IMG/VR virus record: IMGVR_UViG_3300020213_000018
Source: an uncultured virus (IMG/VR IMGVR_UViG_3300020213_000018)
Lineage: Duplodnaviria > Heunggongvirae > Uroviricota > Caudoviricetes
DNA length: 61,105 nucleotides
Strand: one strand, 5' to 3'
Of the stretch, positions 937-54,040 are shown piece after piece. The notes beneath the pieces are model-generated. The model was not told the origin of the DNA and searched no databases. It saw nothing but the letters and a program-made list of their open reading frames with translations. Each line of letters starts with the position of its first letter. Position 1 is the stretch's first letter. Position numbers and translations under genes: made by a program.

Positions 937-948
937 TTAAATTACAGA

Positions 949-2431: not shown

Positions 2432-2454
2432 AAAACAATTTTTTTAAAAAATTA

Positions 2455-2997: not shown

Positions 2998-3067
2998 AAT
3001 AATTGGTTTTTGGTTTTTTGTACTTTATTTTTTTGCTGCTGTGCTATTAATGTCTAATGATGTAAAG

Positions 3068-5035: not shown

Positions 5036-5056
5036 ATTATTTATTTTATTTCAACA

Positions 5057-5812: not shown

Positions 5813-5895
5813 AGCTTTTTGTTTTTATTTAGTTTATATTTTTTTATTTATTTTTTATTATTAAAATTTATATAAATCTTTGCGTTATTATCCAC

Positions 5896-6504: not shown

Positions 6505-6520
6505 TATAAATTAATATTAA

Positions 6521-7150: not shown

Positions 7151-7158
7151 ATAGTTAT

Positions 7159-7770: not shown

Positions 7771-7838
7771 GGTGTTTTTTTTTAGTTTATTAATTATTTT
7801 TTTATATCAACGGAAAAGGTTTGTAGCATAACCTGAAA

Positions 7839-8861: not shown

Positions 8862-8872
8862 AATTTGTTTTA

Positions 8873-9451: not shown

Positions 9452-9516
9452 TTTTACGTTTTTTTAGTTTTTTAAATTACACTTATCAAGCGGTATATTT
9501 ATTTTTTCAGCCATCC

Positions 9517-10320: not shown

Positions 10321-10372
10321 ATATTAAAAAAATTAAATAAAATAAATGATATTTTATTGATTTTTATTTTTT

Positions 10373-17890: not shown

Positions 17891-20800
17891 TTATTTTTTA
17901 CGTTTAAAACTTGCTCTTTTACCTAAATCAAATGTTTCAAACTTTTCACTAATACCACCGCCTTTTTTAAAATCAGCTACATGAGTAACTTGCTCACCAT
18001 CTTTTTCAGCGAGAACAACAGTTACTTCGTAAGATTTTTTTGCTTTAAACGCTACTGCTGCTTTTTTTTGAGCCTCATAAGACGTATCGGCATAAACATC
18101 CATTTGTTTTCCTTTGTAGAAAGCAACATATCCTTTTTTTCCTTCGCCAACACTGCCACCGTCAACCATTTTATCCGCCTCAGTAAATGTAACGCTACCG
18201 TGTTCCATCATTGTATCCAATGCACTTTCTACCATGTAGTTTGGAAACCAATAAACTTTTGCAGATTCAGGATAATCAGTTTTATACATTTCACCTTCTT
18301 CTCCTTCGTAATAATAACCGTCAGTAATTCCTTCTGCGTTTGTTAATCCGAATCCACTATCACCTATATCGTTATGGAAAATGTATTCGCTGTTACCGTG
18401 AACGTCCTCAAATAATTCAAACCAAATATTAGAATCATCAGCTTTACTATCAGTTTTTAATTCAGTTACAAGTTCAATGCCTTCATCATCTATTGATAAT
18501 TTTAAGCCATCTTTTACTTTTTGTAATGTCAAATATTTATAAACTTCGGGTTTTGATTCATCAATCCCACCGCCTTTGGCGTATTTTTTCTTTACACCCA
18601 TTATAGAAGTAAAATCACTATAAGATTTCTTTTTAACGGTAAATCCTTCTTTTTTTAATTCATTAATGTATTTTTTTGCTTTAGTATCATCCGATATACT
18701 TTTTGACTTAATTTCAAAAGCATTTGTTATTTCCTCCGAAAATACATTTGAACCAAAATATTTATTTAAAAATTCTATTTCTGTAACATCAACCCCACCG
18801 CCTTTAGCGTACTTAGAATCTTTACCCTCCATAAAATGAGTGGCATCTGATAAATCTGTTGCGGAACGAGTAATTTTTGAAACTATCCAAGCAGGAATTT
18901 CAGAATTATTTTTTACAGCAGAATCAAGTTCTTTTGAGTGATGAGAAATTTGCTTATTATATCTCTTTATCATTAAAAAATTTTCTTCACCAACTCCACC
19001 GCCTTTAGCCATTTGTCCGTGCATTACTTCTAAGGCAGAGTTCACGCCTTGAATATCTGCACCTGCACGTTTAAGGGCTATTGAATAAATCTGTGCCATT
19101 TTCTTGCTACCTTGTGAAATAGCAGATAACAAAGCCAAATAATCTCCGTAATGATTCTTAGTGGTCTTTGGTTTTCTTTCAATGCGTATTACTTCGGGTT
19201 TGAAATCCTCTGCAAGTCCGTTAAGCAATTTATCCTGTTCAGGTGTGATTTTATTAACATCACCGCCTGTGTCAAAAGTTAATGTTGATTTATCATTACC
19301 TGTTACTTTTCCTGTTTGTAAAACCTGTATTAAATCTCTTTTCATTTCATCAGAATACTTTTTATCAATATCCTTTGCCAAGTCTTTATAGTAATCAGAA
19401 ATATCGGCTACAAAATCTAAATTATTGCTATACATAGTGGATAAATTATGTTTACCCCAATTTTCTTTTGATTTATTGCCAACCCAATTAGTGTTAATCC
19501 TACCACCTTTAGTAAACTGACCATAGGTAGCAGCCTGATTGAACATACTAAAGAAATTACTACCTGCTGATACTTTAGATATATCTTTTCTGTTACCACC
19601 AAATGCAAACCTAAATTCTTTTTTATATGACGATTTTAAAACTTTATCTAAATGAGAAACAATTTTTTTCTTTAATTCAGCATTAATAGACTTAGATTTT
19701 TTTAGTTCAGCTTTTAATTTTTCAAGGTTTAGTTTTGTAGCTTGTTTATTTGTGATAGCGAGTAATTTTTCAATATCATTTTCACCTTTAATTTTTTCGG
19801 ATAATTCAGCTAATCCGTCAAACCAAGTATCTGTATCGCTACTAAATATTGAACCAATACCACCGCCTTTAGCGTAATCTCCACCGTCAATATAAACTTT
19901 ACCATCTTGGGCAAACACATAAGCACTCTCACCTAATTGCTTAGAGGCACTACTTAATCTATCACCAAGTTCTTTATCAATTCCTTCTCTATCCCAAAAA
20001 CCTGCACCGTGTCCAACTTGTGTTAACCATAAGTCATGCCCGATTTGCTCATCATTTAAACCACTTGCTTTTAAATCAGCATCGTTGTCAATCATAAACT
20101 TAATTATACGTTGTCTTATTTTTTCTAAGTTATCTTTATCAAATTCATCGTATGAATAATTTGAATCGAATGATTGGTCTTCATCATCTGTTGATGACCA
20201 TAACGCAGCAATAATATAATGCTTTAAAACAATTTCAACTCTGTCTTTATTTTTTAAATCACCACCATCAGCCATTAACGGAGTAGAAGATGATTTATAA
20301 TTTTCTGCAATCCAAGTAAATAATTTTGTTTGATTACCTACGCTTAAATCGGTAGAGAATTTTAAAACAGCTTCGGAACTTCCTGAGTTATTATAAATTC
20401 TTGAAAACGTATCGCTTAAATGTTTATCATTATCAAAAGCCTTTTCAACAAAACCTTGCGGATAATTAAACATGAAGTAAATCATGTTTCTCATTGCATT
20501 TATTTTGCAAGGCATATCATTATCACCAAAAGAACCACCGAGAGGTGTACTAAAAGATTGATAATTGTTAGCTACCCAAGTAAATAATTTTTTCTGATTA
20601 CCTGCATCTAAGTCGGTAATAAAATATAATAATGCTACGGCTGAACTTTTTTTAATTTTTTTACTTCTTGCAAAACCATCAAACTTACTATTTAAGTGTG
20701 CTTTAACCATATTTGAATCCCCCCAAACACTTTCAATAAAATTGTACGGGAAGTTATAAATGAAGTACACTATGTTACGCATAGCGTTTATCTCGCAGTT

Positions 20801-23053
20801 TATTTTATTACCGCTACCAACTCCGCCACCTTTATTAAATCTGTTTACTCTCATAACCATATTTAACGGAATATTATATCCCTGTGGGTCAATAATAGGT
20901 TCAGAAGGTAGATTATCTTCTTCATCATGCTCTCCTTCTTCATCTGTAATATATTCAATTTCTAACCAATCAGAAGTTTTAGTATTGTCGCTACCAAAAG
21001 CATCACGAACTCTTGCTGCATCTCCACTATTACTTATCATAATTTCATACCCACCTGAGTTTGAAACTGTGTATGTGCCATGAACAATAAATTCTTCATC
21101 GTTATCTCCAACACCACCACCTTTAGCCATATTACGGTTACAGTATTCAATCAAATCACTTGCATCAACATCTCCACCTTCTGTAATAGTAACATCAAGG
21201 ATTACACCTTCATCACCTTCGGGAGTAAAAATCCAATGGAAAACAGATGTACCTCCTGTATATGAAATCATATTACCTACTTCTAATAAGTCAGGCAATT
21301 GAGAAACTGTCGGATTTTTAATGGTTACTTTTTCACCATTTTGTTTTATTAAAACTAATGTACTGTCTTCAAAAACGTAATCTTCTTCTAACTGAAAATA
21401 ATCACCACGAGTTGCGCTGAATTGTCCCTCAAAACTATTTAAAGATGCGCTTCTGTATTTTCTTGGTTTATCTGCTCTTTTTCCTGAAACGAAAGAATCA
21501 GTAACCCATAATTTATCTTTACCGCAATGAATATACGCTCCTTGATATTGGTCAAAATATTTCGCTGTCGCATCAATACCATTTTTTCTTAGGTTATTTG
21601 CTACATCACCCGTGTACTTATATTCTTCGGGTAAATCAAATTCAATTGGTTTAAGTGATTTTACACCACCACCTCTTTTAAAATAGCCGTAATTATTATT
21701 AGCTTCAACTTCCGATACTATTTCAGCATCTTCGGGAATATCACCTAATTGTTTTAAATATTTTTCAAGACCTGAAATATCTTCAAAGTGCCTCATAAAT
21801 CCATCATCTACGGGAGATGATTGCATTTCACGTTCTTCTTCGGGTAAATCGTGGTCAGGATATTTGAACTCCCAAACGGTATTACCGTTGGTCATGTCTT
21901 CAACGTATGCGGAAATCTCACCTCTTTCTTCGTGAAACTTATAAACGAACTTGTTTGTTATATTTTTTTTTTCGTTATAATCTTCGTCGGTATCATCAAC
22001 CCAACCGCCTGTGGCGTGTTTTAATGACTTAAAATGAGTGTTCCAATAAGAGAAAAACCTTTCGATTTCTTCTTTGTTATTTTCTGCTATCGCCTTTTCC
22101 AACTTCACTAAATCGTCTTTTAGTAAATGATACATTATATTACTACCTTTTTTTGGCTCTAATGACTTCAAATAAATATTCCAATACGAATAGCTTCCGA
22201 AAAATTTGTCTATTTCTTCTTTGTTATTTTCTTCTATTGCTTTTTCTAAATTTATAAAATCATCTTTTATAAAATTATACAATCTTATATTTTTTTTTTC
22301 GTTATAATCTTCGTCGGTATCATCAACCCCACCGCCTATTGAGAATTTTCGAGTATTTTCCAAATCATTGTAAACTTCCATTCTCAACGAATTATCGGTA
22401 ACATACTCATACAAACTTTCTGCTTCATTGTCAGTAACTTCTTTTTGTGCTTCTTCAATAGAAATACCGTAATGAGTAGCAATATTTTTTAGTATCCGTT
22501 CTCTTTTAGATTCTGACAAACCCTCTAAATAACTTTTGTTACCAATTAAACCGCCTGTGGCGTAAATCTGTGAACCAACCCCACCACCGTCTTCAAACTT
22601 TTTAGTTTTCATGTCAGCAAGTGTGTCTTGTAATAATTCTAAATATTCTTTTGTTTCAGTATCTTTTGGATTTTCTTTTACGGTATCTTCAATCAATTCA
22701 ATTAATTCTGACATTGATTGTATTTCTTCCTGATGTTTTTGTTTTTCTTCTTTATTCGAGCTTTTTTTAATTGGCATCGGTTTAAGTTTTTTAACTTCAA
22801 CAATAGGTTCAGGTTTAATAATTTTTTTCGGTTCAGGTTTTTTGATGTCTGCTTTTGGAATTGGAATAATACCCAACGCTTGTGGGTAGTTTTCTTCAAT
22901 CAATTTTTTAACTTCCTCAAATTCAGGACTACCTTCTAATAAATCCACATTATCATAAGCTAATAAATCGCTCCTAATTAAAGTTGCTGTATTAGCATCA
23001 AGTTTACTTAGGTCTAATTTTTTTAGAAATTCAGAAGGTTTTATATTGCTCAT
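17891..23053 (-). CDS. 1720-aa modular protein made of short modules separated by ~17 PhixxGG motifs
   Basis: FEDGG, YATGG, FSIGG, HATGG, FKRGG, MAKGG x2, FNKGG, MADGG, YAKGG x3, FAFGG, FTKGG, FDTGG, MVDGG, FKKGG; internal duplications. Confidence 0.85.
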   Translation of the reverse strand: MSNIKPSEFLKKLDLSKLDANTATLIRSDLLAYDNVDLLEGSPEFEEVKKLIEENYPQALGIIPIPKADIKKPEPKKIIKPEPIVEVKKLKPMPIKKSSNKEEKQKHQEEIQSMSELIELIEDTVKENPKDTETKEYLELLQDTLADMKTKKFEDGGGVGSQIYATGGLIGNKSYLEGLSESKRERILKNIATHYGISIEEAQKEVTDNEAESLYEYVTDNSLRMEVYNDLENTRKFSIGGGVDDTDEDYNEKKNIRLYNFIKDDFINLEKAIEENNKEEIDKFFGSYSYWNIYLKSLEPKKGSNIMYHLLKDDLVKLEKAIAENNKEEIERFFSYWNTHFKSLKHATGGWVDDTDEDYNEKKNITNKFVYKFHEERGEISAYVEDMTNGNTVWEFKYPDHDLPEEEREMQSSPVDDGFMRHFEDISGLEKYLKQLGDIPEDAEIVSEVEANNNYGYFKRGGGVKSLKPIEFDLPEEYKYTGDVANNLRKNGIDATAKYFDQYQGAYIHCGKDKLWVTDSFVSGKRADKPRKYRSASLNSFEGQFSATRGDYFQLEEDYVFEDSTLVLIKQNGEKVTIKNPTVSQLPDLLEVGNMISYTGGTSVFHWIFTPEGDEGVILDVTITEGGDVDASDLIEYCNRNMAKGGGVGDNDEEFIVHGTYTVSNSGGYEIMISNSGDAARVRDAFGSDNTKTSDWLEIEYITDEEGEHDEEDNLPSEPIIDPQGYNIPLNMVMRVNRFNKGGGVGSGNKINCEINAMRNIVYFIYNFPYNFIESVWGDSNMVKAHLNSKFDGFARSKKIKKSSAVALLYFITDLDAGNQKKLFTWVANNYQSFSTPLGGSFGDNDMPCKINAMRNMIYFMFNYPQGFVEKAFDNDKHLSDTFSRIYNNSGSSEAVLKFSTDLSVGNQTKLFTWIAENYKSSSTPLMADGGDLKNKDRVEIVLKHYIIAALWSSTDDEDQSFDSNYSYDEFDKDNLEKIRQRIIKFMIDNDADLKASGLNDEQIGHDLWLTQVGHGAGFWDREGIDKELGDRLSSASKQLGESAYVFAQDGKVYIDGGDYAKGGGIGSIFSSDTDTWFDGLAELSEKIKGENDIEKLLAITNKQATKLNLEKLKAELKKSKSINAELKKKIVSHLDKVLKSSYKKEFRFAFGGNRKDISKVSAGSNFFSMFNQAATYGQFTKGGRINTNWVGNKSKENWGKHNLSTMYSNNLDFVADISDYYKDLAKDIDKKYSDEMKRDLIQVLQTGKVTGNDKSTLTFDTGGDVNKITPEQDKLLNGLAEDFKPEVIRIERKPKTTKNHYGDYLALLSAISQGSKKMAQIYSIALKRAGADIQGVNSALEVMHGQMAKGGGVGEENFLMIKRYNKQISHHSKELDSAVKNNSEIPAWIVSKITRSATDLSDATHFMEGKDSKYAKGGGVDVTEIEFLNKYFGSNVFSEEITNAFEIKSKSISDDTKAKKYINELKKEGFTVKKKSYSDFTSIMGVKKKYAKGGGIDESKPEVYKYLTLQKVKDGLKLSIDDEGIELVTELKTDSKADDSNIWFELFEDVHGNSEYIFHNDIGDSGFGLTNAEGITDGYYYEGEEGEMYKTDYPESAKVYWFPNYMVESALDTMMEHGSVTFTEADKMVDGGSVGEGKKGYVAFYKGKQMDVYADTSYEAQKKAAVAFKAKKSYEVTVVLAEKDGEQVTHVADFKKGGGISEKFETFDLGKRASFKRKK
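21958..22337. repeat. 53-nt direct repeat with 1 mismatch, 327 nt apart
   Basis: 21958-22010 vs 22285-22337, encoding GG(W/G)VDDTDEDYNEKKNI. Confidence 0.9.
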
Positions 23054-23098
23054 TTTATGTAGGTAATGTCTAATTAAATATTAATTTAATCACTCTGA

Positions 23099-23119
23099 CA
23101 AAAATAACTAAATAAACAA
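23099..23119 (-). promoter_or_regulatory. putative Bacteroidota-type -7 promoter box
   Basis: TATTTTTG (TAnnTTTG) 46 nt upstream of the 1720-aa ORF; flanking CAAAAATAACTA..TAAACAA also present at 54118. Confidence 0.5.
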
Positions 23120-23275
23120 ACCAATTACTATACGCATAATAAGTAATCGGACATAACATGACAATAAAAACTTTTTTATGGTCGTTTAATAAAATAAAAT
23201 AAACAACGTAGAAACATCAGTAAACACAAGGCTTTAAGGTATGTTTTTTGATTAAAACACTACCGTATCCTGACA

Positions 23276-23299
23276 AACATATACGCAGATTTGCGTAAA
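23276..23299. promoter_or_regulatory. palindromic operator-like site TACGCA-N4-TGCGTA
   Basis: AACATATACGCAGATTTGCGTAAA, 22/24 identical to 54193-54216. Confidence 0.65.
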
Positions 23300-23375
23300 G
23301 TATAGGTTATAATAAACTTTCAGAAAAGTTATTTTTTTTTCAACACTAAAAACATTCTTTATGTTAATAAAAAAA

Positions 23376-26363
23376 CTACTTGAAACTAAATAATGATTCT
23401 ACTAATTTATTTGAATCCAATTTTAACCCATTTAATTCTCCACCATCTTCCATAGTTTCTTTTTTACGAAGTAACTCGATTAATTTTTTTAGTTTATTGA
23501 TACCGATTTCTCTCTCTTTAGATTCTTCTTCAATAATATTTTTAGTTTCTTCATCAACAACTAAAGTTTGTTTTTCAGAATCATCTCCGCTATCTTCACT
23601 AAGTTCAACGTATTCATCAACACGAGTATCCCTGAATGACGTAAATGATTTTATGTTAAGTTCAGTCTTAATAACTTCAAACAAATAATCATACAAAATA
23701 TAAAATATTTTACGCTCAATACCGTATGGATAAACCCCTTCTTTTCTATCGAAATAAACTCCACTAACTAAATAATTGTTACTTCTGTTATTATCCGCCA
23801 TCTTATCGTACAGGTATGTTTCCATACCTCTCGTAAATAATTCCCAATCAAATGTCCAATATTCAGAGCGCATAGCATTATTTTTTTTAAAAAATGCAGT
23901 TCCGCTTCTTTGACCAAAAACATTACCTCTCGAACTATATGGTTTATTAGATAATTGAAATTCATGTTTATCTAATTTCAATTGATTTAATATTGCACCT
24001 AAAGTATCTTCAACATTAGATTTATTTGATAAATAAAAATCATAGTTTAAATATTTCGGTAAATATTCATTCAAATATTTTATGTATTCTTCAATTGTAT
24101 CAAACTTTTCAAACGTAGGAATTTTATTGTTTTTTTCAAATTTAATTGTAACAGTTGATGACATTACAGATTCCACAAACTCATTAAGCAACGGTAGCAA
24201 CTGTACCATTACGGGATGTTCTTTACTTATTTTTGTATCATCAAATTTATTATCATTAGTTACGAAGCATCCTTGCTTAATGAAGCTCATTAATGAAGTC
24301 ATAGCAGCACTTATTGATTCGTTACCTATATTATTTGCACCGCCTTTTGTATAAGAACCATATACCGCATGATTTTTTTCACTCTTATTATCCTTCGGTG
24401 ATAATCTACTGATATTGAAATCCAAGTAATGACCTAATTCGTGTGCGACACTACCATCACCATTACTTCTCGTTAAATTAACAGCATTTGTATCGGGGGA
24501 AAAATGTGCCATTGCTTTACCACGACCTGATGCTGCAAACAAAATACCTAAATCACCAAGACCTGTAAATGATTTAACGTCCCAATTTAATGTTTCACAT
24601 AAATCTATTACTGATTGTGCAAAATATTTAGCGTTTTCTTTACGCTCATTGTCGGGTAAAGTTAAACCAAATGTAATACGTGTGATTCCCAAAATATTTT
24701 TATAGAACTGTAATAATTTATCTTGGTCGGATAGGTCGCTATCATAAACAGCAACTCCGTTTGTACGCTTAATATAAGACAAAGGGACACTGCTATTTAC
24801 GATTAATTCAGTACGTTCACCTTTTTTACGTTCCTTTTCTTCCTTATCTAAAAAAGAATAATTGTTTTCACGAACAAAATATTTTTTATTTAGTTCATCT
24901 AATTCGTTTTTGTATCCTTCAATTTTCTTTTGATAACCACTATTAGGGTCATCTACGATACTTTTCATTAAACGAATAGCATCATCAATATCGTTACGTT
25001 TTACCATCGTAGCGAAATTCCTTTTTCGATTTGAAGTCCAATACCAAGAACTCATACCATTCGCTAATCCATAATCAACTTTTTCACGATATGTTTTTTC
25101 AGGGTCGCTCAAAAAATTAATATCGTTTGTGTACTTAACGATATTATCTTCTAAAGGCTTCATTTGTGATTCATAAATATTATCGTATTCTTCTTGTGTG
25201 AAAGGCTCGTATCGTTTCGCATCTTCATAAACTTTGTAGGTTGATGATTTTGTTTTACCTGAGTAAAAAACTTTATTAATAAACATATAAAATTTATCAC
25301 CAAACACGGACTTAATTAATTCCTTCCTAACCGCACCTGAATAATTCCTTATATAATCTTTATCAGATTGTTCATAAACACCCGAAGTAATATCTTTTTC
25401 AGTTAAGACACTAATTCTTTTATCACCCTCAACTACATAAAGTTTATGTAGAAATTTATATTCAAGTGGTAATATTTTATTGTTACTAAATTGTACTGCT
25501 ACATTTTTTAATGTGTTCCAATAATCATATTCTTTGTATAGTTCGGGAAAAGATAATTTCTTTTTATCAAAATCCCAATGCATTATATTAACTTTATTTG
25601 CTAATTCATTAATTTTCTCATCAATTTTATCAGCCTTATCCCTATACTCTTGTTCACGTTCAACTTGTTCCTGATATTCTTTATTCTGTAAAATCAATTC
25701 GTTTTCCATTTCAGGATTAGCAATTAAAATTGATTTACGGATAATACCATTAATAAATAATCTACGTGTTTCTTCAAAATCTTTTAATGTGATTGCTTCG
25801 TTAAATATTTGATATAACCATTCACTTAACCCAACGTACAATGCACGGAACTCTGCGGTGTCGGGAGGTGTATTGCCGAGAAATTCACGAAGTTTCATTT
25901 TTAAAAATAAACATCCACCCGAAACACCTTTATCAATTTGTTCGTTGGTATTTATTTTAGGATAAACTTTATCCTTTTTAATTAATGCTCTTGCAATGAC
26001 GGCATCCTTCTCAATGTTTTCTAAATCAGAAAAGTTAATTAGCCCTTTGTATGCGTTCATTTCTTTCCTACTTCCCGAAACACGAACATCACTATCTTTA
26101 AAATTTTTATTAATATCTCTATTACGAAGAACCAAATCCACGTTTCTATCAACACTTGAATAAACAAATTCAATATCATCTTCGGGAACATCAGTTATTT
26201 GATGACCCGCAGATTTTACATTATAGAAAAACTTATCGTTACGTTCAAACGCTTTTTCATTTTCAATACGACCTTCATCACCAACAGTATAAATTACATT
26301 ATCATCTTTGGTAACGGTTGTCACGAACTTAACAGCATCGTCTATTTTGAATTTTTGTTCCAC
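23376..26363 (-). CDS. polyvalent protein with LPD1-like region and HExxH zincin motif
   Basis: GRGKAMAHF...GDGSVAHELGHYLD; YW...ELFTRGMETY...NNYLV...YPYGIER; terminal MEDGGEL. Confidence 0.75.
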   Translation of the reverse strand: MEQKFKIDDAVKFVTTVTKDDNVIYTVGDEGRIENEKAFERNDKFFYNVKSAGHQITDVPEDDIEFVYSSVDRNVDLVLRNRDINKNFKDSDVRVSGSRKEMNAYKGLINFSDLENIEKDAVIARALIKKDKVYPKINTNEQIDKGVSGGCLFLKMKLREFLGNTPPDTAEFRALYVGLSEWLYQIFNEAITLKDFEETRRLFINGIIRKSILIANPEMENELILQNKEYQEQVEREQEYRDKADKIDEKINELANKVNIMHWDFDKKKLSFPELYKEYDYWNTLKNVAVQFSNNKILPLEYKFLHKLYVVEGDKRISVLTEKDITSGVYEQSDKDYIRNYSGAVRKELIKSVFGDKFYMFINKVFYSGKTKSSTYKVYEDAKRYEPFTQEEYDNIYESQMKPLEDNIVKYTNDINFLSDPEKTYREKVDYGLANGMSSWYWTSNRKRNFATMVKRNDIDDAIRLMKSIVDDPNSGYQKKIEGYKNELDELNKKYFVRENNYSFLDKEEKERKKGERTELIVNSSVPLSYIKRTNGVAVYDSDLSDQDKLLQFYKNILGITRITFGLTLPDNERKENAKYFAQSVIDLCETLNWDVKSFTGLGDLGILFAASGRGKAMAHFSPDTNAVNLTRSNGDGSVAHELGHYLDFNISRLSPKDNKSEKNHAVYGSYTKGGANNIGNESISAAMTSLMSFIKQGCFVTNDNKFDDTKISKEHPVMVQLLPLLNEFVESVMSSTVTIKFEKNNKIPTFEKFDTIEEYIKYLNEYLPKYLNYDFYLSNKSNVEDTLGAILNQLKLDKHEFQLSNKPYSSRGNVFGQRSGTAFFKKNNAMRSEYWTFDWELFTRGMETYLYDKMADNNRSNNYLVSGVYFDRKEGVYPYGIERKIFYILYDYLFEVIKTELNIKSFTSFRDTRVDEYVELSEDSGDDSEKQTLVVDEETKNIIEEESKEREIGINKLKKLIELLRKKETMEDGGELNGLKLDSNKLVESLFSFK

Positions 26364-26387
26364 GTTAGTTTTATTTTTTTAGTTTAA

Positions 26388-32411: not shown

Positions 32412-32428
32412 GTGTTTACATCAATTAA

Positions 32429-32436
32429 CAAAATTA
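32429..32436 (-). promoter_or_regulatory. possible TAnnTTTG -7 box
   Basis: TAATTTTG 18 nt upstream of the helicase ATG; could be chance in AT-rich DNA. Confidence 0.3.
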
Positions 32437-32455
32437 ATAAAATTTACAACTTTTT

Positions 32456-36967: not shown

Positions 36968-36979
36968 AAATTAATTTTT

Positions 36980-44896: not shown

Positions 44897-44929
44897 GATT
44901 TTATTTTTTTAAAAAATTACTTTATATTT

Positions 44930-47900
44930 TTATTTTTTTACAAACAACTCATCATAAATACCCTTGCTTGGGACTTTATTATCTCTAAATTTGAACTTAC
45001 ATGATTTATTTTTTGAAATTGAACCTCCTTCTTTAAGTTCTTTTTCATCATGCTCATCGTTTTCTTTTTCTTTGTAAAATTCCGTTGATTCATTAATGGT
45101 AATCTCATCACCCAAGTCGTAATCGTCATATTGTTTCTGTGTTATTGCTTTTACTTTTAAACCATCTTCGGTAGCCTTATCTACCAAACGTATTACTGTG
45201 TCAATCTCATCCTGTTTATCTATATCGTATTTAGCTACCATATACCAATTTTCTTCATCTTCTTCAATGGCAAAAATAGCAAAATAAACAATCTGTGAAA
45301 CTATACCACCATCAGCATAAGTAACTATATGATAATCCTCTACAATTTCATTATTAAAATGATTGTATATTTTTGGTATAATTTTTTTATTTTGTCTGTT
45401 TTTTAATTCACTAAAGAAACCTATTACATCGGTAGCAGAAAATTCCTGCAACACCTTATATAGTTTTAAACCAAATTTTTTATCTCGATGCTCTTCATCA
45501 ATGTATATTGATTGAACGCTTAAAAATTTACCTGTGTATCGTCCATGATAGTCATTAAGATAATTATCACGAGCTTCAAGTACACCAACACGTTCATCGT
45601 TATACCATAATGTAATATACTTAGCGTTATCAGGGTCATTTACTGCAATCACATAACCATCTTTATTTTCATAAACAATATGTTTTCCGTTATTATCTAT
45701 GTATAAAAATGTAAAAAGTCCGCCACCTTTTGCCATTTTATCTTTTACTTTCAATATGCAACTTTCATATTTATGTAATTGCGCTGCGTTCCATTCACTT
45801 CTTTTTTGTGTACCTGCGGTATGACCGATTGAAACCGTACAAATAGAAAACGGATTTATTGAACCGCCTTTTTTAAACATCGGTATTCCTTGTTCAATTG
45901 ATTCCTGTAATTGGGAAGTAATATCTATTGATGGTTGAGTAGATGTTTTTTTACCGAAATCAATAGGATATTTATTTGCTGAATTAACTAAATCAGCATG
46001 ATGGTCTTCATTTGAATAAAAATTATCTCTCCAACTAAGAGAGCCATCAGATAATATTTTATTATCTACTTTGCTTTTCAATAAATATTTATTTTGTAAT
46101 TTTTCAACATAAGTATTTTCAACTGTGATTTCTCGTGAGGGTTGTTTTAACACGTTAATATCAAGAGTTTCAATTTCAGATTCAATTATTTCTGTTGTTT
46201 TTCCTGTCAATTCTTTAACCAACGATTTTAATACAGAACCAACTATACCTTCTTTACCTTGTATTATAGAACCATAAAATCCAATCATTCCGCTACTTGA
46301 TAATTTTAAATCATCATCTGTAAGTTCACCATAAGTTGTTTGACCCATATTATCTGTAAGACCAACCTTATTTTTAATTCGTTCCGCAACATCCTTGCCA
46401 ACCAATTTTTCAATTTGTTTTAAATCAATATCACGTTCTTTTAAAACCATTTGATTTGATTTATCGTATGTGGTAATTCCGTAACCTTGTTCATCATCAC
46501 CAACCTGCCACCAAGAAATTTTACTAAGTTGTTTACTCAAATCATATAAATCATTTTCCTGCTCACCTGTCATCCACGAAAATTTATTAGCATCATTCTT
46601 AACAGCGTGTTGTAGTAATACTTTTAAACCTAATTTAACCCACTTGTTTGTATCTGTAACGAATGGGGCGGTTGGTACGCCATTTACTCCTTTAATCAAC
46701 ATATTATCCGTAGCAACTTCTTCATCTGTTCTATCTGAGTACCAACTATGCCCATATTTACGTTTCATTTCTTCACGAAATTCAACAAGATTTTTTCCAT
46801 CATTAGTTTTAAACCCTTCTCTCTTAGCTTTTTGACCCCAATCTGACTGAATTTCCGATACGAAAAGAACTTTATAACCGTTAGCATCAGTTCTTATATC
46901 GTAACGCAAATGCACTAAAATATTTTTTTCATCCCAATGACTTGAAGTGAATGTTTGTATTGATTTGTGCGATAAACTATCAATATAATTTAATTGATGT
47001 AATTCGTTTTCGGTTAATATACCTGAGTTTTTATAATCGTATAAATTAAAAGTATTCCACTCAACCGTATCTGATTTTATACCTACCCTTTCTTTTACAC
47101 TATCAGACAACGCATGAAATAATTTATTATAAAATAAACGATTCTTTTGTTCTTCATCAGGCATCATAATTAATACCTCTGTATAATTTTTTGATTCTCC
47201 TGATAAAACGTGCTTTGAGTATTTAGTTTTAGATTTTCTTTTTTCTATATTATCATAATTCACTTTATCTAAGGCTGATTGTATAGCCTCCGCTTCATCA
47301 TCAACTTCATTAGCGTTAATTCCAATTACACCAATATCTCCACCAAAATCAATTTCCCATGAACCCGATGCGAATTGATTAAAAGATACTTTTTTAATAT
47401 CTTTCTCTTGTATATTTTTAATATCTCCCTTAACTACTTCAATAAACTCTAATGAATTATCACGAATAAAATTTAACACATCAATTTTTAATACTTGCTC
47501 GTCAGGTTTTTTTGTATCTAAATACTCGGTTAAACCCGTATAGATTGCTTCATCAGATTTAGTTCCAATAATATCCTTCCATTTGTTTGTAGATGCACGG
47601 TCTTGTTTAAATTCAAGGATACGTTTTTCAATAGGTGAATAAAAACCCATTTCATTAACGGTTGGTGATATTTTTTTAGTTTGTTGTTCGACTACGCCAC
47701 CGTTAGAAAGTTTTTCATAATTCTCATCAACTTCAACAACAGTACCCGTATTATCAATTCTCAACCCTGCCATATACTTTATGTCATTAAGAAAAGTATT
47801 ATAATACTTTACTATTCTTTCATCGTATGTACGTTCATTAATTCGCTTGTAATTATTTTCCTCTAATCGCTTCATGGCACTATAATAACTTTTAAGCACT

Positions 47901-50677
47901 ATCCTGTATTGAGCGGGAGTGCTACGATTAATCGGTGAAGGGAATACCTGTTTGAATTTTTTACCGATAATTTCTTCTTTTTTATAATGAGTGATTGGTA
48001 TTTTGCCACCTAATACAAATTCGTTTTTATTTAACTCATAGTTCATAGCGCAAATATTTATTTCACCACCTTCATCAAAACGAACATCTCCACCATTTAC
48101 TGAAAACTTTTGTAAAATTTCCCATAAAGGAGGATTTGTTAATTTTTTTCCATCACTTAAAATAACATCTGTGAAATCGGACAAATATCTAAAATGGTAT
48201 TTTTGTATATTATATCCACCTGCTCCGATAGCTTCTGTTTTAAATGTAAACTTACTTCCATTTTCAAAATTAAATAAAATTAATCCTTGAAACCCTTTTG
48301 CTCCAACTTCAAGTTGAATTAATTTATAATTTTTAATAGGTATGTTTATCTTTTCAAAATTTCCAAAAACAGAAAGTAAAAATTTCAATCTCAAATTAAA
48401 TATGTAGTATGTTATTTCTCTATCTAAAACTTTCTCATAGTCCGATTTTAATTTAAGATTTTTATAGTAAGGAACATCAATAATACCATCTTCATTAAGT
48501 CTTATTCTCCAATTATATACTTTACCTTTTACTTTTTTAACAACATCTTCCCAACTACTAAATATCTCTCTCCAAAACGGTATTTGTTCCCTTATGATTT
48601 CTGCTTTAACCTCTACAATATAACTTTTAATCAAATCATTATACCTAATCATTTCTCTCTCGTATATTTTATCCTCCATAGGCTTAAATGATAATTCAAT
48701 ATCTTTAAGCATTTTAGTTAAAACATCCTTATTTATACTCGGCATTAAATTATAGGCTTGTTGATAAAGTTTTTTAATTTCATCTTCTCGCTTCTGTTCT
48801 TCCGTTCTTTCCTGTCTTTTAGTTATTTTTAATTTGATTTGCTTTAACTTATGCTTTACTTCTTTTTCTATCGGAGCTAATGGGTCAGGTATTTTTTGAT
48901 AATCATAAACAGCCTTCTCGTATTTATTCATCAAAGGAATATACTCTTTTTTAAAATTACCGTAAGATTCAACTAATTGTATAAGTATAGTGCTTTCGTA
49001 ATAATCTTTACCATCACTAATGTATCTGTTGTATTCTGTATATTTAATTTGTATAGTTGTTCCGTACTCTTTACCTATATTATGGATGCTTTTTTGTTCT
49101 ATACCTTCTGATTTTAATAAATCTACAATAAAATCTCCTGAACTTTTCTTTGAAAATAATTTCAAATAATTATCAATAGCATATTTAATTTTATCGTAAT
49201 GAGCTTTTATTAAAGTATCATTTTCAACATCAAAATCAATAAATTTTTGTATTTCAGTTTTATATGACTGAGATGCTTTTTCTCTTATTAAAGGTGTAAT
49301 GTTTTCAGTAGTTATTAATCCGCCTTCATTAAATTTAATAATACCACCATCATTAAAACGAATATCAGTATTACTACCGTCAAAAGTTGTGTTAGTTCCG
49401 TCTGCTAACTTTATATCGTTTGCATTATAAACCGCATAAGTCTTATCACCTCTTTCAAAAGAAATCCAACCTCCAAAACCATTTTCAGTTAAAAACTTCT
49501 GCACAGTTTCGTTCTCAAACATATTCCAATTATCTCGTGCTTTTGTTTTGTAAGATGTAAGGTTTCGTTTTTTGATATACAATGTTTTATCATAACTACT
49601 TTTCGTATTTTTCAATCGTATAGTAAAATATCTTTTATCCTCATCTTCTTTTGGTAAAGTGTTTATATTATCAATATAATACTTTTTTATATTTACAACT
49701 TTATCGAAAAATTCAACAGCAATAGGGTCTTCGTTAAGTTTCATCCTATAAGTTTTTTCATCTAAAATATAAGGTTCAAATGTTTTTCCATTATATTTTA
49801 TTTCCTTTCTTCCATTAGAACTCAATGAGAATGAAGTCGAGTTAATATAATCAGCAACTACCCATTCCATTTTTTCATCAAAATCTCTTTCATTGACTGT
49901 ATAAGCTAAATTTTCATCTTTGTAAATTAACATACGGTTTTCGTGTTGCGACATAGAAATTTTCTCAGGAATAACATCGCCCACATTGGCTTTCAAAATA
50001 TCGTCTGTCATTTGGTCAGGATATATAGTAACTATACCCGACAATTGTTCAACCACATCTTCTTTATCTAAATCAGCATCCAAAAACCACATAGTACCAT
50101 GAGATACATTAATCTTTTTGGGTAATTCTTTATTAGCTAATTCAATAACCGATTTATTATTAGGGTCAAATAGATTCTTTATGTTTAAGAAACAGGCATA
50201 CGAATCAATATCCGCATCAAGTCCACCGTCCATACTTTTTGTTTCAGCATAAGATTCAGCAAATGCCCTACTTTCAGAAAAAAAAGCGGGTAATCTTTTA
50301 AATTCATTAAATTTTTTTTCTGCACCGTAATTATACATGAACCCGTGATAAACTACTAATGGCTTTCCATCTTTATCAACTACTTTACTAACGGCAGGAA
50401 AAAATTTATCTCCAATTTTTGAATTGGGATATAATTTTAATGCAAAACTAATTAATTCCTCACCCGCAACCTTTATAGCACCTCTACGTTCACTCTCGCT
50501 ATTATTAGCTTGAATTGACATCTCGAATAAAAATTCTTCTTCGTTGCCTTTAAACGAACTTTTTAAAATTCCTTTAATGTTATCACCAAGTAATTTTGCT
50601 TTGGCTAATAATTCCCAATCACCGAACCATTTTTTAAATTCAGCAGAGTAAATAATATTATTTTTATTACTTTCCAT
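44930..50677 (-). CDS. 1915-aa polyvalent protein: ART-PolyVal, EIQSD-type domain, GNAT acetyltransferase
   Basis: FKKWFGDW..SKVVDKDGKPLVVYHG..FFS..AESYA..LNIKN..DIRF; SHW..HLR..SEIQSDW..APF; VQSIYIDEEHRDKKFGLKLY. Confidence 0.8.
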   Translation of the reverse strand: MESNKNNIIYSAEFKKWFGDWELLAKAKLLGDNIKGILKSSFKGNEEEFLFEMSIQANNSESERRGAIKVAGEELISFALKLYPNSKIGDKFFPAVSKVVDKDGKPLVVYHGFMYNYGAEKKFNEFKRLPAFFSESRAFAESYAETKSMDGGLDADIDSYACFLNIKNLFDPNNKSVIELANKELPKKINVSHGTMWFLDADLDKEDVVEQLSGIVTIYPDQMTDDILKANVGDVIPEKISMSQHENRMLIYKDENLAYTVNERDFDEKMEWVVADYINSTSFSLSSNGRKEIKYNGKTFEPYILDEKTYRMKLNEDPIAVEFFDKVVNIKKYYIDNINTLPKEDEDKRYFTIRLKNTKSSYDKTLYIKKRNLTSYKTKARDNWNMFENETVQKFLTENGFGGWISFERGDKTYAVYNANDIKLADGTNTTFDGSNTDIRFNDGGIIKFNEGGLITTENITPLIREKASQSYKTEIQKFIDFDVENDTLIKAHYDKIKYAIDNYLKLFSKKSSGDFIVDLLKSEGIEQKSIHNIGKEYGTTIQIKYTEYNRYISDGKDYYESTILIQLVESYGNFKKEYIPLMNKYEKAVYDYQKIPDPLAPIEKEVKHKLKQIKLKITKRQERTEEQKREDEIKKLYQQAYNLMPSINKDVLTKMLKDIELSFKPMEDKIYEREMIRYNDLIKSYIVEVKAEIIREQIPFWREIFSSWEDVVKKVKGKVYNWRIRLNEDGIIDVPYYKNLKLKSDYEKVLDREITYYIFNLRLKFLLSVFGNFEKINIPIKNYKLIQLEVGAKGFQGLILFNFENGSKFTFKTEAIGAGGYNIQKYHFRYLSDFTDVILSDGKKLTNPPLWEILQKFSVNGGDVRFDEGGEINICAMNYELNKNEFVLGGKIPITHYKKEEIIGKKFKQVFPSPINRSTPAQYRIVLKSYYSAMKRLEENNYKRINERTYDERIVKYYNTFLNDIKYMAGLRIDNTGTVVEVDENYEKLSNGGVVEQQTKKISPTVNEMGFYSPIEKRILEFKQDRASTNKWKDIIGTKSDEAIYTGLTEYLDTKKPDEQVLKIDVLNFIRDNSLEFIEVVKGDIKNIQEKDIKKVSFNQFASGSWEIDFGGDIGVIGINANEVDDEAEAIQSALDKVNYDNIEKRKSKTKYSKHVLSGESKNYTEVLIMMPDEEQKNRLFYNKLFHALSDSVKERVGIKSDTVEWNTFNLYDYKNSGILTENELHQLNYIDSLSHKSIQTFTSSHWDEKNILVHLRYDIRTDANGYKVLFVSEIQSDWGQKAKREGFKTNDGKNLVEFREEMKRKYGHSWYSDRTDEEVATDNMLIKGVNGVPTAPFVTDTNKWVKLGLKVLLQHAVKNDANKFSWMTGEQENDLYDLSKQLSKISWWQVGDDEQGYGITTYDKSNQMVLKERDIDLKQIEKLVGKDVAERIKNKVGLTDNMGQTTYGELTDDDLKLSSSGMIGFYGSIIQGKEGIVGSVLKSLVKELTGKTTEIIESEIETLDINVLKQPSREITVENTYVEKLQNKYLLKSKVDNKILSDGSLSWRDNFYSNEDHHADLVNSANKYPIDFGKKTSTQPSIDITSQLQESIEQGIPMFKKGGSINPFSICTVSIGHTAGTQKRSEWNAAQLHKYESCILKVKDKMAKGGGLFTFLYIDNNGKHIVYENKDGYVIAVNDPDNAKYITLWYNDERVGVLEARDNYLNDYHGRYTGKFLSVQSIYIDEEHRDKKFGLKLYKVLQEFSATDVIGFFSELKNRQNKKIIPKIYNHFNNEIVEDYHIVTYADGGIVSQIVYFAIFAIEEDEENWYMVAKYDIDKQDEIDTVIRLVDKATEDGLKVKAITQKQYDDYDLGDEITINESTEFYKEKENDEHDEKELKEGGSISKNKSCKFKFRDNKVPSKGIYDELFVKK

Positions 50678-50681
50678 TATT

Positions 50682-51623
50682 TTACTTTATAACCATATAA
50701 TACGGTTTCAAAAACATTTTTTTTAATTTAATTCCACCAATATATTCATAAGGATAATCAGGTGAACGACCTAATATTTCACGAAGCGTTTTACTGTCAA
50801 TGTGATTGTCGGTATCTAAATTCTTTTTTACTTTTTCTTCTTTATCATTATTTGTTTTACGTTCATCCACAACACCACCTTCTTCATAAGTATCTCTATC
50901 GTTTATATCAATTACTTCACCCTTCATAATGAATGATGATTCGAGTTCAGGAATTAAATAATGTTTACGTAAAGTACCCGAACCGTGTCCAACTTTAGAT
51001 GCTATTGAACGTAAAGTTTTTAAAAATAATTTCTTTCGCTCTTTTTGATTTTTTTCCTCAGTATCTTTATCAGGCATTTCAACGTTTTTCAACTTATCTA
51101 TTACCCATTTGTTGCTAGAAAATCCACGTATGTCTTTTGAACGTATATCAAAGTCCGCCAAGTATCGGTTAACAGCATCTGCTTTAACCCTAAACCCATC
51201 TGAAGTTTCAAACACATAATTACTTTTTGAAGTAGCGATTGCTTTTTTTAATGCTTCGGCTAACTTAGCATCTGAAAAACTCCTTTCATGGTCAACACCT
51301 GATTTACCAACATATTTTAAAATAATTTTATTACCATCAAATTTAATATGTTTTTTTCTAAACCAAGTAATTCCGAAATGACCATTAGATGCCGATGCTT
51401 CATTCCCAATCCGTTCTCCCGTAGAAAGCATAAGTGAAACTACTAATGCCTTTAAAAATACTTTTTCATTTTCGTCTTTGATGTCAGTACTAACATTGTA
51501 ACGTAACTTACGCATATTGTTTGACAATACCTCAATCTGTTCTTTTTTCTTATCCCAACGTTTACGTAAGTCTTCCTCAGAAATCTCAGGTCGTTTTTCA
51601 AATTTAGGTTTTGTAGTAAACAT
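50682..51623 (-). CDS. DNA topoisomerase IB catalytic core
   Basis: ERIGN (Arg), VGKSG (Lys), KDIRG (Arg), VGH (His), LRKHY (Tyr nucleophile). Confidence 0.88.
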   Translation of the reverse strand: MFTTKPKFEKRPEISEEDLRKRWDKKKEQIEVLSNNMRKLRYNVSTDIKDENEKVFLKALVVSLMLSTGERIGNEASASNGHFGITWFRKKHIKFDGNKIILKYVGKSGVDHERSFSDAKLAEALKKAIATSKSNYVFETSDGFRVKADAVNRYLADFDIRSKDIRGFSSNKWVIDKLKNVEMPDKDTEEKNQKERKKLFLKTLRSIASKVGHGSGTLRKHYLIPELESSFIMKGEVIDINDRDTYEEGGVVDERKTNNDKEEKVKKNLDTDNHIDSKTLREILGRSPDYPYEYIGGIKLKKMFLKPYYMVIK

Positions 51624-54040
51624 TATTTCACGATAGATTTAAGTGCGTTTAATTTAGCTTCTTTATTATCACTTCCTGAATTTAATTCATAAGTAACGAA
51701 TGGTACTTTGTATTTATTTAAAATAGCTTTAGCCTCATCCATACTTTCAGGAATAATAGCATACTTAATTTCCCTAACTTCAATATAATCAGGTGTATTA
51801 GCGTTTACATTGTGTAAAACTAAAACTAATGGCTTTGGTATTAATTTACTATCATAATCGTTTTCAATATTAATAAAATGCACTGTTGGATAATAGAACC
51901 CACCTTTTTTATCAGCAAACATCAATGTTGAAAAATCACTACTGATTACACCAACTGTTGATGGTTTAGATTCAGTTTCAGTATCGGATACTGAACCACC
52001 TTCTTCAAAAGTTACTTCGTTTTTCATCTTGTTTACTATTTCATTCAACGCCTTAATTCTATTTTTTATTCTTTTTTCTCTATCCTTCTCATCATACTTA
52101 TAAGTTTCAATATTTTTCATCCCGTGCTTTTTTAGAATATCAATTGCTTCCTTAAATTCTTCGGGAACAATAGCACCAACAAACTCATTCAATCTTACTG
52201 ATTTTTTTAGTTTAACTTCAAAATATTCAGTAGGTGAATTTCTTACTGACATTGCAGCTTCATGAACATTATTTATTATTTCAGTTGGTAAATCATTAAA
52301 ATCTTCACCTCTAAAAATACGTTGTATTTGTTCATCAGTTGGTTCATTATATTGACCAACTTTTCCTAAAGCATTATAAAATGAATGTGATGAATCCTGA
52401 TACTTATAATATCCCCTTGCTTGGTCTGCCTTATCAATTAATTCAGTTTGGTTTGCGAGAAACTTCTGAAAATCTTTATCACTAATTACCTTATCAAAAT
52501 CTGATTTTGCAGCAGATAATGATTTATATTCTTTAGATGCAAGTGCAGAGGCATTGCCTAATCTATAAGAGAAACCTTCGGCATTTTTTAATCCCTGACT
52601 TTTCATGTATCTTTCTACATTTTCAAGTGTCATAGGCACTTTACGACCACTTACTGACTGAATAAAATAATGACCAACAACAGCGTTATTTGATAATTCA
52701 TAAACAAACTCCTGAATTTCAGCAGAGTGTTTATTACTAAATTTACTTTCTTCAAAATAATCACCTAATTTACTTTCGTTAATTATTTTTTCAGATTCAT
52801 AAAGTGATTTTATTTCGGTTATAATCTCTACACCCGTTGCATAAAATATTTTACCATCCTTTAAATTATTTTCAATTATTTCTTTACCTAAGTCAACAAT
52901 AATATCGTCAATAGACTTTTTACCGTTAGCGTATTTCATACGTAACATACTCTTATCCGAATGTGTTTCTACATAAAAATCAGTTATTAATTTTGTGGCT
53001 TTTTCATCATCATGCTGATAATGTTTAATTTCTTTTAATTCAGGATACTTTTTATCAATTAATTTTTTTAAAAAATCAATTGCTTTTTTTTGTGGTTCTG
53101 TACTTAGTATTACTTGTAATGGTTTGTATTTATATTCAATTGGAACGTTAATACCTTTTACATTAGCGAAAGCCAACATGAACCTATTATTGTATTCTAC
53201 ATCAGAAATAACCTTTCTTACAGTTTCTTTACCTTGCTCAATTTTATCATATACATACCTAAATCCTTCGTAAACTAACTTACGTACCTGATTATCTTCT
53301 ATATTTTTCAAGAACTCAGTATCTTCACCGTAAGGTATAATGTATTTTGAAAAATTAGCTTCCAATTTCTTACGGTCTATTTTCATGTAAACCGTTGGGA
53401 AACGTGGAGAGTATATATCCCTGTTGTATAGTTTATTCTTGGCACTTTCCTTTGGGTCATACAGGTCTTTCGGTGCAACCAAAGTGATTTCACCATACTT
53501 CACAAATGGAATATTTGGATTTATTATAGCAAGACTTGGCATCGGAAGTCCGCCCATCTCGTCAGCGAAAATTAAATGTTCAAACCATAAGTTATGAACG
53601 CCAATTAAACGAGTATCTTTATCCGCTAATTGTCCGCCAAGACGATTACTGTAAGTATCTGCTGCATCAGCAGTAACTCTACAATTTTTTTCTGATTGTA
53701 AAACATTTATGATGTCCTTCGCTGAACCATTCATATCCCTACGCTTATCGTCAAGTACAACAGGTCGGCAGATGATAAAATCATTGCTGCTACTTTTACC
53801 CTGCTCGAAGACACAATGGTTATCCTGAAATATAGCTTGTAGTATTTCTTTATTGGTTTTATTTTTAAATTCGTATTGTTTATTATGAGCCATAACAGTT
53901 TTACAAATATGGTATTCATCTTTTTCAATTTCCACCTTACGAACCCCGTCAACAATGGATTGTATGCCTCCTTCGGTATGTAATTTTCCTTTATACAATC
54001 CCGATTTTGAATTAGGAGGAAGGTTTATGATATTGCTCAT
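51623..54040 (-). CDS. polyvalent-type protein with HNL..GG..MPS domain
   Basis: N-terminal GKLHTEGGI..EIEKDE; LIGVHNL..GGLPMPSLAI..YGEITLV..DIYSPRFP..EYFEVK; degenerate C-terminal copy. Confidence 0.7.
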   Translation of the reverse strand: MSNIINLPPNSKSGLYKGKLHTEGGIQSIVDGVRKVEIEKDEYHICKTVMAHNKQYEFKNKTNKEILQAIFQDNHCVFEQGKSSSNDFIICRPVVLDDKRRDMNGSAKDIINVLQSEKNCRVTADAADTYSNRLGGQLADKDTRLIGVHNLWFEHLIFADEMGGLPMPSLAIINPNIPFVKYGEITLVAPKDLYDPKESAKNKLYNRDIYSPRFPTVYMKIDRKKLEANFSKYIIPYGEDTEFLKNIEDNQVRKLVYEGFRYVYDKIEQGKETVRKVISDVEYNNRFMLAFANVKGINVPIEYKYKPLQVILSTEPQKKAIDFLKKLIDKKYPELKEIKHYQHDDEKATKLITDFYVETHSDKSMLRMKYANGKKSIDDIIVDLGKEIIENNLKDGKIFYATGVEIITEIKSLYESEKIINESKLGDYFEESKFSNKHSAEIQEFVYELSNNAVVGHYFIQSVSGRKVPMTLENVERYMKSQGLKNAEGFSYRLGNASALASKEYKSLSAAKSDFDKVISDKDFQKFLANQTELIDKADQARGYYKYQDSSHSFYNALGKVGQYNEPTDEQIQRIFRGEDFNDLPTEIINNVHEAAMSVRNSPTEYFEVKLKKSVRLNEFVGAIVPEEFKEAIDILKKHGMKNIETYKYDEKDREKRIKNRIKALNEIVNKMKNEVTFEEGGSVSDTETESKPSTVGVISSDFSTLMFADKKGGFYYPTVHFINIENDYDSKLIPKPLVLVLHNVNANTPDYIEVREIKYAIIPESMDEAKAILNKYKVPFVTYELNSGSDNKEAKLNALKSIVK

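Follow-up and report, generated by a model that had tools for sequence, protein, structure and literature searches.

A di-glycine motif at the module junctions of giant phage polyvalent proteins and a zincin-like candidate for the enzyme that may read it

Polyvalent proteins are regarded as the earliest weapons to enter a cell along with phage or plasmid DNA. A phage-type MPTase (metallopeptidase), with an Asp residue three residues after its HExxH element, has been described, and such MPTases have been proposed to process polyvalent proteins into functional units (Iyer, Burroughs, Anand, de Souza, and Aravind 2017, PMC5512222). The available part of that article names no cleavage site, nowhere uses "linker", "glycine", or "GG motif", and lists RadC as restricted to proteins of conjugative elements. 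Here we analyze a 61,105-nucleotide (nt) stretch of DNA from an uncultured virus of the Caudoviricetes (IMG/VR record IMGVR_UViG_3300020213_000018), referred to in its full length as the window. Eight tightly packed minus-strand open reading frames (ORFs), ORF1 to ORF8, occupy positions 17891-54040 and encode proteins of 1720, 995, 2007, 1503, 2638, 1915, 313, and 805 amino acids (aa), 11,896 aa in total, which are punctuated by a short motif of the form [FYML]-x-x-G-G-x-[IVL]. The base composition of this array is uniform, with ∼30% G+C and a strongly negative GC skew. Pfam finds in it two ART-PolyVal domains together with LPD1, PBECR5, RadC, AAA_34/Helicase_C_4, Pep_deformylase, DUF3140, GNAT, and Topoisom_I; PHROGs added only giant-protein families of unknown function, and no MuF or other packaging domain appeared in the Pfam scan of the array. 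With catalytic or binding domains of several unrelated kinds in one chain, polyvalent-specific families among them, the products are polyvalent proteins, as a preliminary description of this DNA had proposed. Like the proteins of the 2017 account, the array carries ART-PolyVal, LPD1, PBECR5, RadC, and an SNF2-like helicase, and ORF2 contains an HExxH domain with an Asp residue three residues downstream. In contrast to that account, the array has a defined junction motif, ORF2 gives no match to Pfam MPTase-PolyVal, and RadC, in the form of a RadC-like JAB domain with an intact JAMM motif (37340-37714), sits in a phage-type polyvalent protein (PMC5512222). No publication on this motif was found in the literature, as judged mostly from titles and the openings of abstracts.

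Several viral and bacterial systems use short peptide sites in a comparable manner. Adenain, pS273R of African swine fever virus, and the coronavirus PLpro cut viral polyproteins after Gly-Gly, and the adenain consensus, (M/I/L)-x-G-G, has its hydrophobic residue at P4. The array motif resembles these sites in being a short, conserved GG element with an upstream hydrophobic residue, repeated at module boundaries as theirs are at product boundaries. It differs from them in that the hydrophobic residue lies one position further from GG, in a conserved aliphatic residue two positions after GG, and in that no CE-clan or papain-like protease was found among the window ORFs or in the genome that holds the related contig C16, introduced below. 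Prohead proteases cut internal head proteins, in T4 at L/I-x-E and in phiKZ-like jumbo phages at S/A/G-x-E; the T4 cargo cut in this way includes an ADP-ribosyltransferase, and phiKZ proteins contain several sites each. The likeness here would be in short sites on phage cargo proteins, while the consensus is different and the array products are putative cargo. Finally, polymorphic toxins contain demarcation motifs, VENN in CdiA and PxxxxDPxGL in Rhs, the latter also being a site of self-cleavage. These are, as in the array, short conserved peptides at the border of exchangeable modules; however, they occur once per protein, before one variable tip, whereas the array motif occurs up to 15 times per protein between unrelated modules.

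The preliminary description had put the motif at roughly 50 copies, counted by eye, across all eight ORFs. When the pattern [FYML]..GG.[IVL] was run as a regular expression on the translated ORFs, it gave 47 matches in the array, distributed over ORF1 to ORF8 as 15, 1, 5, 7, 8, 9, 1, and 1, so both the count and the spread hold. Residue shuffles of the array proteins (n = 1000) gave a mean of 1.86 matches, with a standard deviation of 1.31 and a maximum of 7. GG dipeptides as such number 103 in the array as compared with 48.2 ± 6.6 in 300 shuffles. The 25 other ORFs of the window of at least 150 aa (6,649 aa) contain 2 matches, YYRGGLL and MAVGGQV, which are chance-like and differ from the true motif in their hydrophobic surroundings. 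Positions that the regular expression leaves free are biased as well, toward K/D/T/R at −1, A/E/K/D at +1, D/K/E at +2, G/S at +5, and G/D/N/S at +7, giving a full pattern of [KDTR]-[FYM]-[AEKD]-[DKE]-G-G-[GS..]-[IVL]-[GDNS]-[SEND], beyond which the flanks are not conserved. All 47 copies have, by construction of the expression, their hydrophobic residue at P5, three positions ahead of GG. Copies of the motif use different synonymous codons, which rules out a DNA-level repeat or recombination site; the motif is kept at the level of the protein, not of the DNA. Among its Gly codons, GGC accounts for 23 of 94 as against 48 of 660 elsewhere, and GGA is almost never the first of the pair, a skew that may reflect avoidance of GGAGG-like words. 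The motifs split the array into ∼46 units of at least 40 aa. Stretches of 1703, 1185, 975, 682, and 611 aa contain no motif, and some domain junctions are thus without one.

None of the 47 motifs falls inside the 1,821 residues of domain stretches assigned by Pfam or PHROGs, as compared with 6.3 under random placement (P = 4.5e-4). In ORF4 (32456-36967, minus strand as for all array ORFs), the ART-PolyVal domain (residues 44-170) has a motif at residue 179, DUF3140 (197-292) lies between motifs at 179 and 310, and the peptide deformylase (817-943, nt 34139-34519) lies between motifs at 790 and 958. The RadC-like JAB of ORF5 (36980-44896) covers residues 2395-2519, with motifs at 2335 and 2522, and the GNAT domain (1680-1748) of ORF6 (44930-50677), a protein that also contains a partial ART-PolyVal domain at 101-184, has motifs at 1648 and 1787. 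For the type IB topoisomerase core (Topoisom_I, 20-215) of ORF7 (50682-51623) the single motif is at residue 246, and the Strawberry-notch-like helicase (AAA_34 with Helicase_C_4, residues 541-1149, nt 28965-30791) of ORF3 (26388-32411) lies between motifs at 247 and 1432. Several domains have their bracketing motifs only 3-21 residues away, and the bracketing of ART, DUF3140, deformylase, helicase, JAB, GNAT, and topoisomerase IB domains that had been described beforehand is correct by the Pfam coordinates. ORF8 (51623-54040), the first gene of the array, encodes a PBECR5 nuclease at residues 144-339 and has its one motif at 678.

Structure prediction leads to the same picture. ORF1 (17891-23053), which has the most motifs of any ORF and 14 segments of at least 40 aa, matched no Pfam family at E ≤ 0.01; in PHROGs, phrog_1915 matches its residues 937-1055. 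An AlphaFold2 (AF2) model of ORF1 residues 920-1275, built on a 42-sequence alignment, has a mean predicted local distance difference test (pLDDT) score of 70 and contains one module at pLDDT >90. Of the four motifs in the model, those at positions 8-14, 141-147, and 261-267 are at pLDDT <50, and the one at 341-347 belongs to a block with pLDDT 57. The flanks, taken as ten residues to each side of a motif, have a polar fraction of 0.68 as compared with 0.61 in bulk, a value that none of 5000 draws of 47 random windows matched. Some copies are near a terminus, as at residue 7 of ORF5 and within 19-28 aa of the C-termini of ORF1, ORF2, and ORF6. A Foldseek search with the three-module ORF1 model returned nothing meaningful, and sequence searches of solved structures with ORF1, ORF5, ORF2, and a profile matched only RadC (2qlc). 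The preliminary description had named two outcomes that would speak against it, a lack of enrichment and motifs lying within folded domains. The motif is enriched, and the domain coordinates and the AF2 model place it at the boundaries of modules and not within folded domains. It is a short linear motif in polar, flexible, low-confidence linkers at module junctions.

Homologues of the array proteins show how closely the motif follows the modular build. The 20 homologues listed for ORF1, which include one fragment of the window itself, all contain the motif, with 4-16 copies where 0.2-0.6 would be expected; the word-based search behind this set may favor shared motif words, though it is homology of the modules that underlies the bit scores (68-2136). 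Residues 920-1720 of ORF1, searched against 1.84 billion representatives, gave 6,426 matches at E ≤ 0.001, and the query splits into separately matching modules, many of which occur as stand-alone small proteins. A tally by length was made on 165 proteins: the 20 ORF1 homologues and, out of the top 150 of the 6,426 matches, the 145 that were new. Among proteins of at least 800 aa, 68 of 71 contain the motif, as do 41 of 44 of 400-799 aa, 22 of 34 of 200-399 aa, and 2 of the 16 single-module proteins below 200 aa. The motif thus goes with multi-module chains and is largely absent from solo single-module homologues. Neighboring motifs are a median of 98 aa apart, with quartiles of 72 and 141 aa. 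Indeed, solo homologues of the ORF1 937-1055 module start just after and end just before the positions of the ORF1 motifs. From 767 instances in 115 homologues of at least 400 aa the consensus is K-[YFM]-[AEK]-[KDN]-G-G-x-[VIL]. A conserved C-terminal variant was also seen: 6 of the 257 proteins collected (P0095, P0133, P0146, P0148, P0157, and P0162) end exactly in [FY]-x-[YF]-[STE]-I-G-G-L, as in ..YSIGGL, and each of the six carries another GG motif 10-12 residues upstream. Comparison of ORF6, the ORF1 orthologue, and ORF2 with GenBank phages by tblastn gave only single-module or LPD5-region matches and no motif-rich relative, and IMG/VR scans with ORF1 and with a homologue alignment gave only two stand-alone module homologues or nothing. 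A stand-alone homologue of the ORF1 1503-1629 module is encoded on two IMG/VR contigs, L001 and L002 (675,678 and 639,979 bp), where it lies among short ORFs at table 11 and has no motif.

An array syntenic with that of the window is present on contig C16 (G001:C16; 375,071 bp, 31.5% G+C, 527 ORFs), the record of which is titled as a Bacteroidota metagenome-assembled genome. The two also share a glycosyltransferase/methyltransferase block, thyA, and a DHH gene. With respect to C16, 32 of the 47 window motifs are at the ends of homology blocks, that is, without 10 covered residues on both sides. The 15 that are covered by the alignments keep the full motif in 12 cases and GG in 14, and in ORF3 three of the five motifs are at aligned positions in the C16 orthologue. 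Identity between the window and its C16 orthologues is 0.83 at the four key motif positions and 0.53 in the flanks. The deformylase module is found in ORF4 of the window, and in C16 it is found in the ORF6 orthologue; it is bracketed by motifs in both (790/958 and 374/533). Within ORF1, 56 of 81 internal BLAST-match endpoints are at most 12 residues from a motif (random placement gives a mean of 16 and a maximum of 40 in 5000 trials), though motif-to-motif matching could itself draw endpoints toward motifs. The motif marks breakpoints of module exchange between related phages. The variable positions of the motif are more alike within a protein than expected (0.259 vs 0.204 ± 0.0025 with shuffled labels); such within-protein "dialects" fit co-adaptation to a lineage-specific reader, and they also fit module duplication. 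These observations describe a selected, junction-specific short linear motif in one lineage of phage polyvalent proteins.

The candidate for a processing protease is ORF2 (23376-26363, minus strand), which combines a zincin-like HExxH domain and LPD1 with a single motif 24 aa from its C-terminus. The predicted zincin (MPTase-like) catalytic region spans positions 23649-24746 (residues ∼540-905) and contains HELGH at residues 641-645 (nt 24429-24443), followed by D648, and a Glu-bearing helix, W836-E848 (nt 23820-23858). The pattern G-[ST]-[VL]-x-H-E-x-x-H-x-x-D is kept in 87 of 88 ORF2 homologues, the exception being a 640-aa protein whose sequence stops short of the site, and H641, E642, H645, D648, W836, E841, R845, and E848 are invariant in 18 orthologues of ∼990 aa. 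The predicted HExxH element with the later Glu helix fits the zincin pattern, and D648 agrees with the phage-type MPTase subfamily. When residues 420-760 of ORF2, a span that leaves the Glu helix outside, were modeled with AF2 (pLDDT 70), the best matches of the model in the PDB were all zincins. The top one is the catalytic domain of lethal factor, with a Foldseek E value of 0.018 and a probability of 0.89; alignment of the two with VIA-align gives Z 7.7 and a root-mean-square deviation of 3.2 Å over 112 residues at 19-21% identity. LTA4H, ERAP2, aureolysin, and PPEP follow at Z 4-5. The LPD1 match in Pfam (residues 829-901, nt 23661-23879) covers the invariant W836-E841-R845-E848 helix, which raises the possibility that LPD1 represents the C-terminal half, zinc ligand included, of a zincin domain that is split by a large insert; the ESM Atlas clusters nearest to ORF2 residues 540-930 are all LPD1.

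The motif copy of ORF2 itself, MEDGGEL (residues 971-977, nt 23433-23453), is followed by a conserved 18-aa tail (..LVESLFSFK). In the 18 orthologues G974, G975, L991, and F992 are invariant, and the strict motif is present in 18 of 19 ORF2-type proteins of ∼980-1160 aa. A 32%-identical IMG/VR relative has METGGNL 19 residues from its end and is preceded by a 2,113-aa giant with five motifs; in each of the window, C16, and L031, an ORF2-type protein with the C-terminal motif has motif-rich giants as neighbors. Among 401 sampled Bacteroidota genomes, 3 contain the HExxH family. Words of the form acidic-x-Leu-Phe recur in the C-terminal tails of ORF2 (23376-23432, LVESLFSFK), ORF6 (44930-45016, IYDELFVKK), and ORF4 (32456-32500, FDELFKR), with similar endings in homologues, and loosely recall the C-terminal docking tips of clamp-binding proteins or of single-stranded DNA-binding protein.

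C16 carries many homing endonucleases, RNA ligases, RtcB, RecT, and lysozyme, SLT, and amidase domains, as well as a collagen-like tail-fiber protein with a T4 gp9/10-like N-terminus. No capsid, portal, terminase, or peptidase family was found in 204 ORFs by PHROGs or in the 144 ORFs of at least 170 aa by Pfam. We read C16 as a jumbo phage and the genome of the window as jumbo-phage-like. C16 contains 69 matches to the regular expression, 40 of them in its array of 11.6 thousand aa and 29 in the other 97 thousand aa. A weight matrix applied to GG sites scores >12 for 24 of 82 in the array as against 2 of 453 outside, and most of the 29 matches outside are in hydrophobic or membrane-like contexts. 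The few good-looking ones cluster at 116-143 kb, in large unknown proteins beside lysis and tail genes, a putative virion module. At the start of this block a 330-aa protein (C16 119979-120968) has five motif-like GG sites (KFKKGGQTKAG twice, KLANGGSL, NYEKGGSF, and KFEHGGGT), and a 366-aa protein at 131893-132990 (L012:11893-12990) has two. Elsewhere C16 encodes NAMPT, PRPP synthetase, a tRNA nucleotidyltransferase, a microbial-type PARG, a TPR-SpoIIE phosphatase, and fragments of class I and class II aminoacyl-tRNA synthetases.

Cleavage at the motif is, as we infer, the best reading of these data. A processing protease would recognize and cut the motif, freeing the units during or after delivery, and we tentatively favor, at somewhat less than even confidence, the zincin-like metallopeptidase domain of ORF2 (HExxHxxD plus the Glu helix) as that enzyme; the invariant motif copy near its C-terminus would be a possible site of autoprocessing. 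Zincins usually prefer a hydrophobic P1′ residue, so that cleavage need not occur directly behind GG but could occur ahead of [VIL] or of [FYM]. Cutting is favored over loading because there is one copy per junction rather than per protein, and also by the analogy with viral polyproteins together with the processing hypothesis of Iyer et al. A wider proposal is that the phage follows eukaryotic viruses in using a polyprotein strategy, in which ORF2 would read [FYM]xxGGx[VIL] at 47 sites and free ∼46 effector units from eight giant precursors after delivery, with code and reader drifting together between lineages; this we regard as conceivable, if doubtful. A number of observations weigh against cleavage by ORF2. 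The structural match of ORF2 to zincins is middling (Z <8) and comes from a truncated model at pLDDT 70, and Pfam MPTase-PolyVal (PF18818) has no match to ORF2 (E ≤ 5) and 0 matches in the genome that holds C16. In two sampled Bacteroidota genomes besides that of C16, HExxH-family proteins of 4,734 and 1,192 aa contain 0 motifs, and the motif is absent from 61 of the 65 HExxH-keeping homologues of 565-937 aa, the motif-free forms including ∼670-aa chromosomal proteins from Marinilabilia, Carboxylicivirga, and Saccharicrinis. The enzyme family is therefore not tied to the motif, and if ORF2 does read it, this is a specificity of the present phage lineage. No other junction motif emerged in the motif-free 4,734-aa relative from a crude gapped k-mer count, a weak negative given that the count barely detects the motif in ORF5. 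Finally, the "dialects" taken as a sign of a co-adapted reader can come from module duplication.

Other observations that count against cleavage are also those that an uncleaved junction signal would explain, namely a docking or loading tag for capsid, portal, or chaperone, or a hinge for packing and tail threading. The motif is built like a binding motif, with two hydrophobic anchors in a disordered polar setting. A binding signal would account at least equally well for the near-terminal copies (ORF5 residue 7; the C-termini of ORF1, ORF2, and ORF6) and for the ..YSIGGL ends of six proteins, from which a cut could free next to nothing. In C16, motif-like sites are concentrated at 116-143 kb, in the putative virion module, and the virion RNA polymerase of phage N4, which has an MPTase domain, is packaged unprocessed (PMC5512222). 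One loading tag per protein would suffice, however, where here there is about one per junction and up to 15 in one protein, no candidate partner was identified, and a plain hinge would not need the conserved aromatic and aliphatic positions. We therefore consider a signal of this type rather unlikely. The homology breakpoints that coincide with motifs, the transfer of modules between ORFs together with their bracketing motifs, and the greater likeness of motifs within than between proteins would also be expected if the motif had no biochemical reader and were a tolerated standard joint, inherited with duplicating and recombining modules and marking where in-frame shuffling gives folded chimeras. 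This is the least probable of the explanations that we consider, since four positions are fixed in 767 instances, in homologues of 30-70% identity, while the linker drifts, and the DNA of the motif copies is conserved only as the peptide requires, so that it offers no substrate for homologous recombination.

The motif could, alternatively, be cut by a different protease, for which the RadC-type JAB/JAMM of ORF5, an unrecognized prohead protease, a host protease, or a GG-cutting cysteine protease come into question. JAMM enzymes and the CE-clan and papain-like viral proteases cut after Gly-Gly, and the JAMM motif of ORF5, HNHPSGNIKPSDAD at residue 2468, is intact and fits H-x-H-x(7)-S-x(2)-D (RadC in Pfam, E 7e-33). 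A head protease, in turn, could be missed because the virion genes of C16 are too divergent for recognition. Against this, the protease of the array would be expected wherever the motif-bearing array occurs, and RadC is not found in the C16 array, the best tblastn match (E 0.001) being elsewhere on the contig; RadC has also been argued to act on nucleic acids (PMC5512222). The Ulp1/adenain/I7-like cysteine protease toward which the preliminary description had pointed finds no support: Pfam scans of the window ORFs of at least 150 aa contain none, and PF02902 and PF00770 have 0 matches in the genome holding C16, the latter absence being weak as the PF00770 control also matched nowhere. Peptidase_S77 (PF03420) likewise has 0 matches in that genome, which says little given that its control matched nowhere. 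Added to this are the lack of a peptidase family in the C16 ORFs scanned with Pfam and PHROGs and the hydrophobic residue at P5 instead of the P4 of the adenain/PLpro consensus. A different protease as the enzyme that cuts is thus improbable on balance. A weak DUF2201_N match (E 0.027) in the ORF at 15110-15739 was dropped, as the protein has no HExxH.

Additional features accompany the array. A recurrent C-terminal module of ∼45-64 aa, ..LGR.P..Y..IGG..L[RK]K.FL[RK]P.YK.., follows the last motif in ORF7, where it comprises the final 63 aa (50682-50870), and in many giant homologues; it is also found in P0008, P0010, P0014, P0022, P0024, P0027, P0028, P0034, P0045, P0090, and P0122. A common role in targeting or anchoring is conceivable for this end. 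On the plus strand, divergent from the array, are a 407-aa low-complexity protein with no family match (54234-55457) and a 230-aa stand-alone ART-PolyVal protein (55513-56205), both of which are kept beside the C16 array. Downstream of the array, at 199-11068, are at least nine genes for glycosyltransferases, FkbM-type and other methyltransferases, and pyruvyl-transferases, syntenic in C16.

That polyvalent proteins are cut into working units has been a matter of prediction since 2017. The strongly conserved junction peptide described here, together with the candidate enzyme encoded in the same operon, opens this prediction to direct testing. The motif would also give a rule by which hundreds of unannotated giant phage proteins can be parsed into their modules, as with the 767 instances in 115 proteins compiled here.

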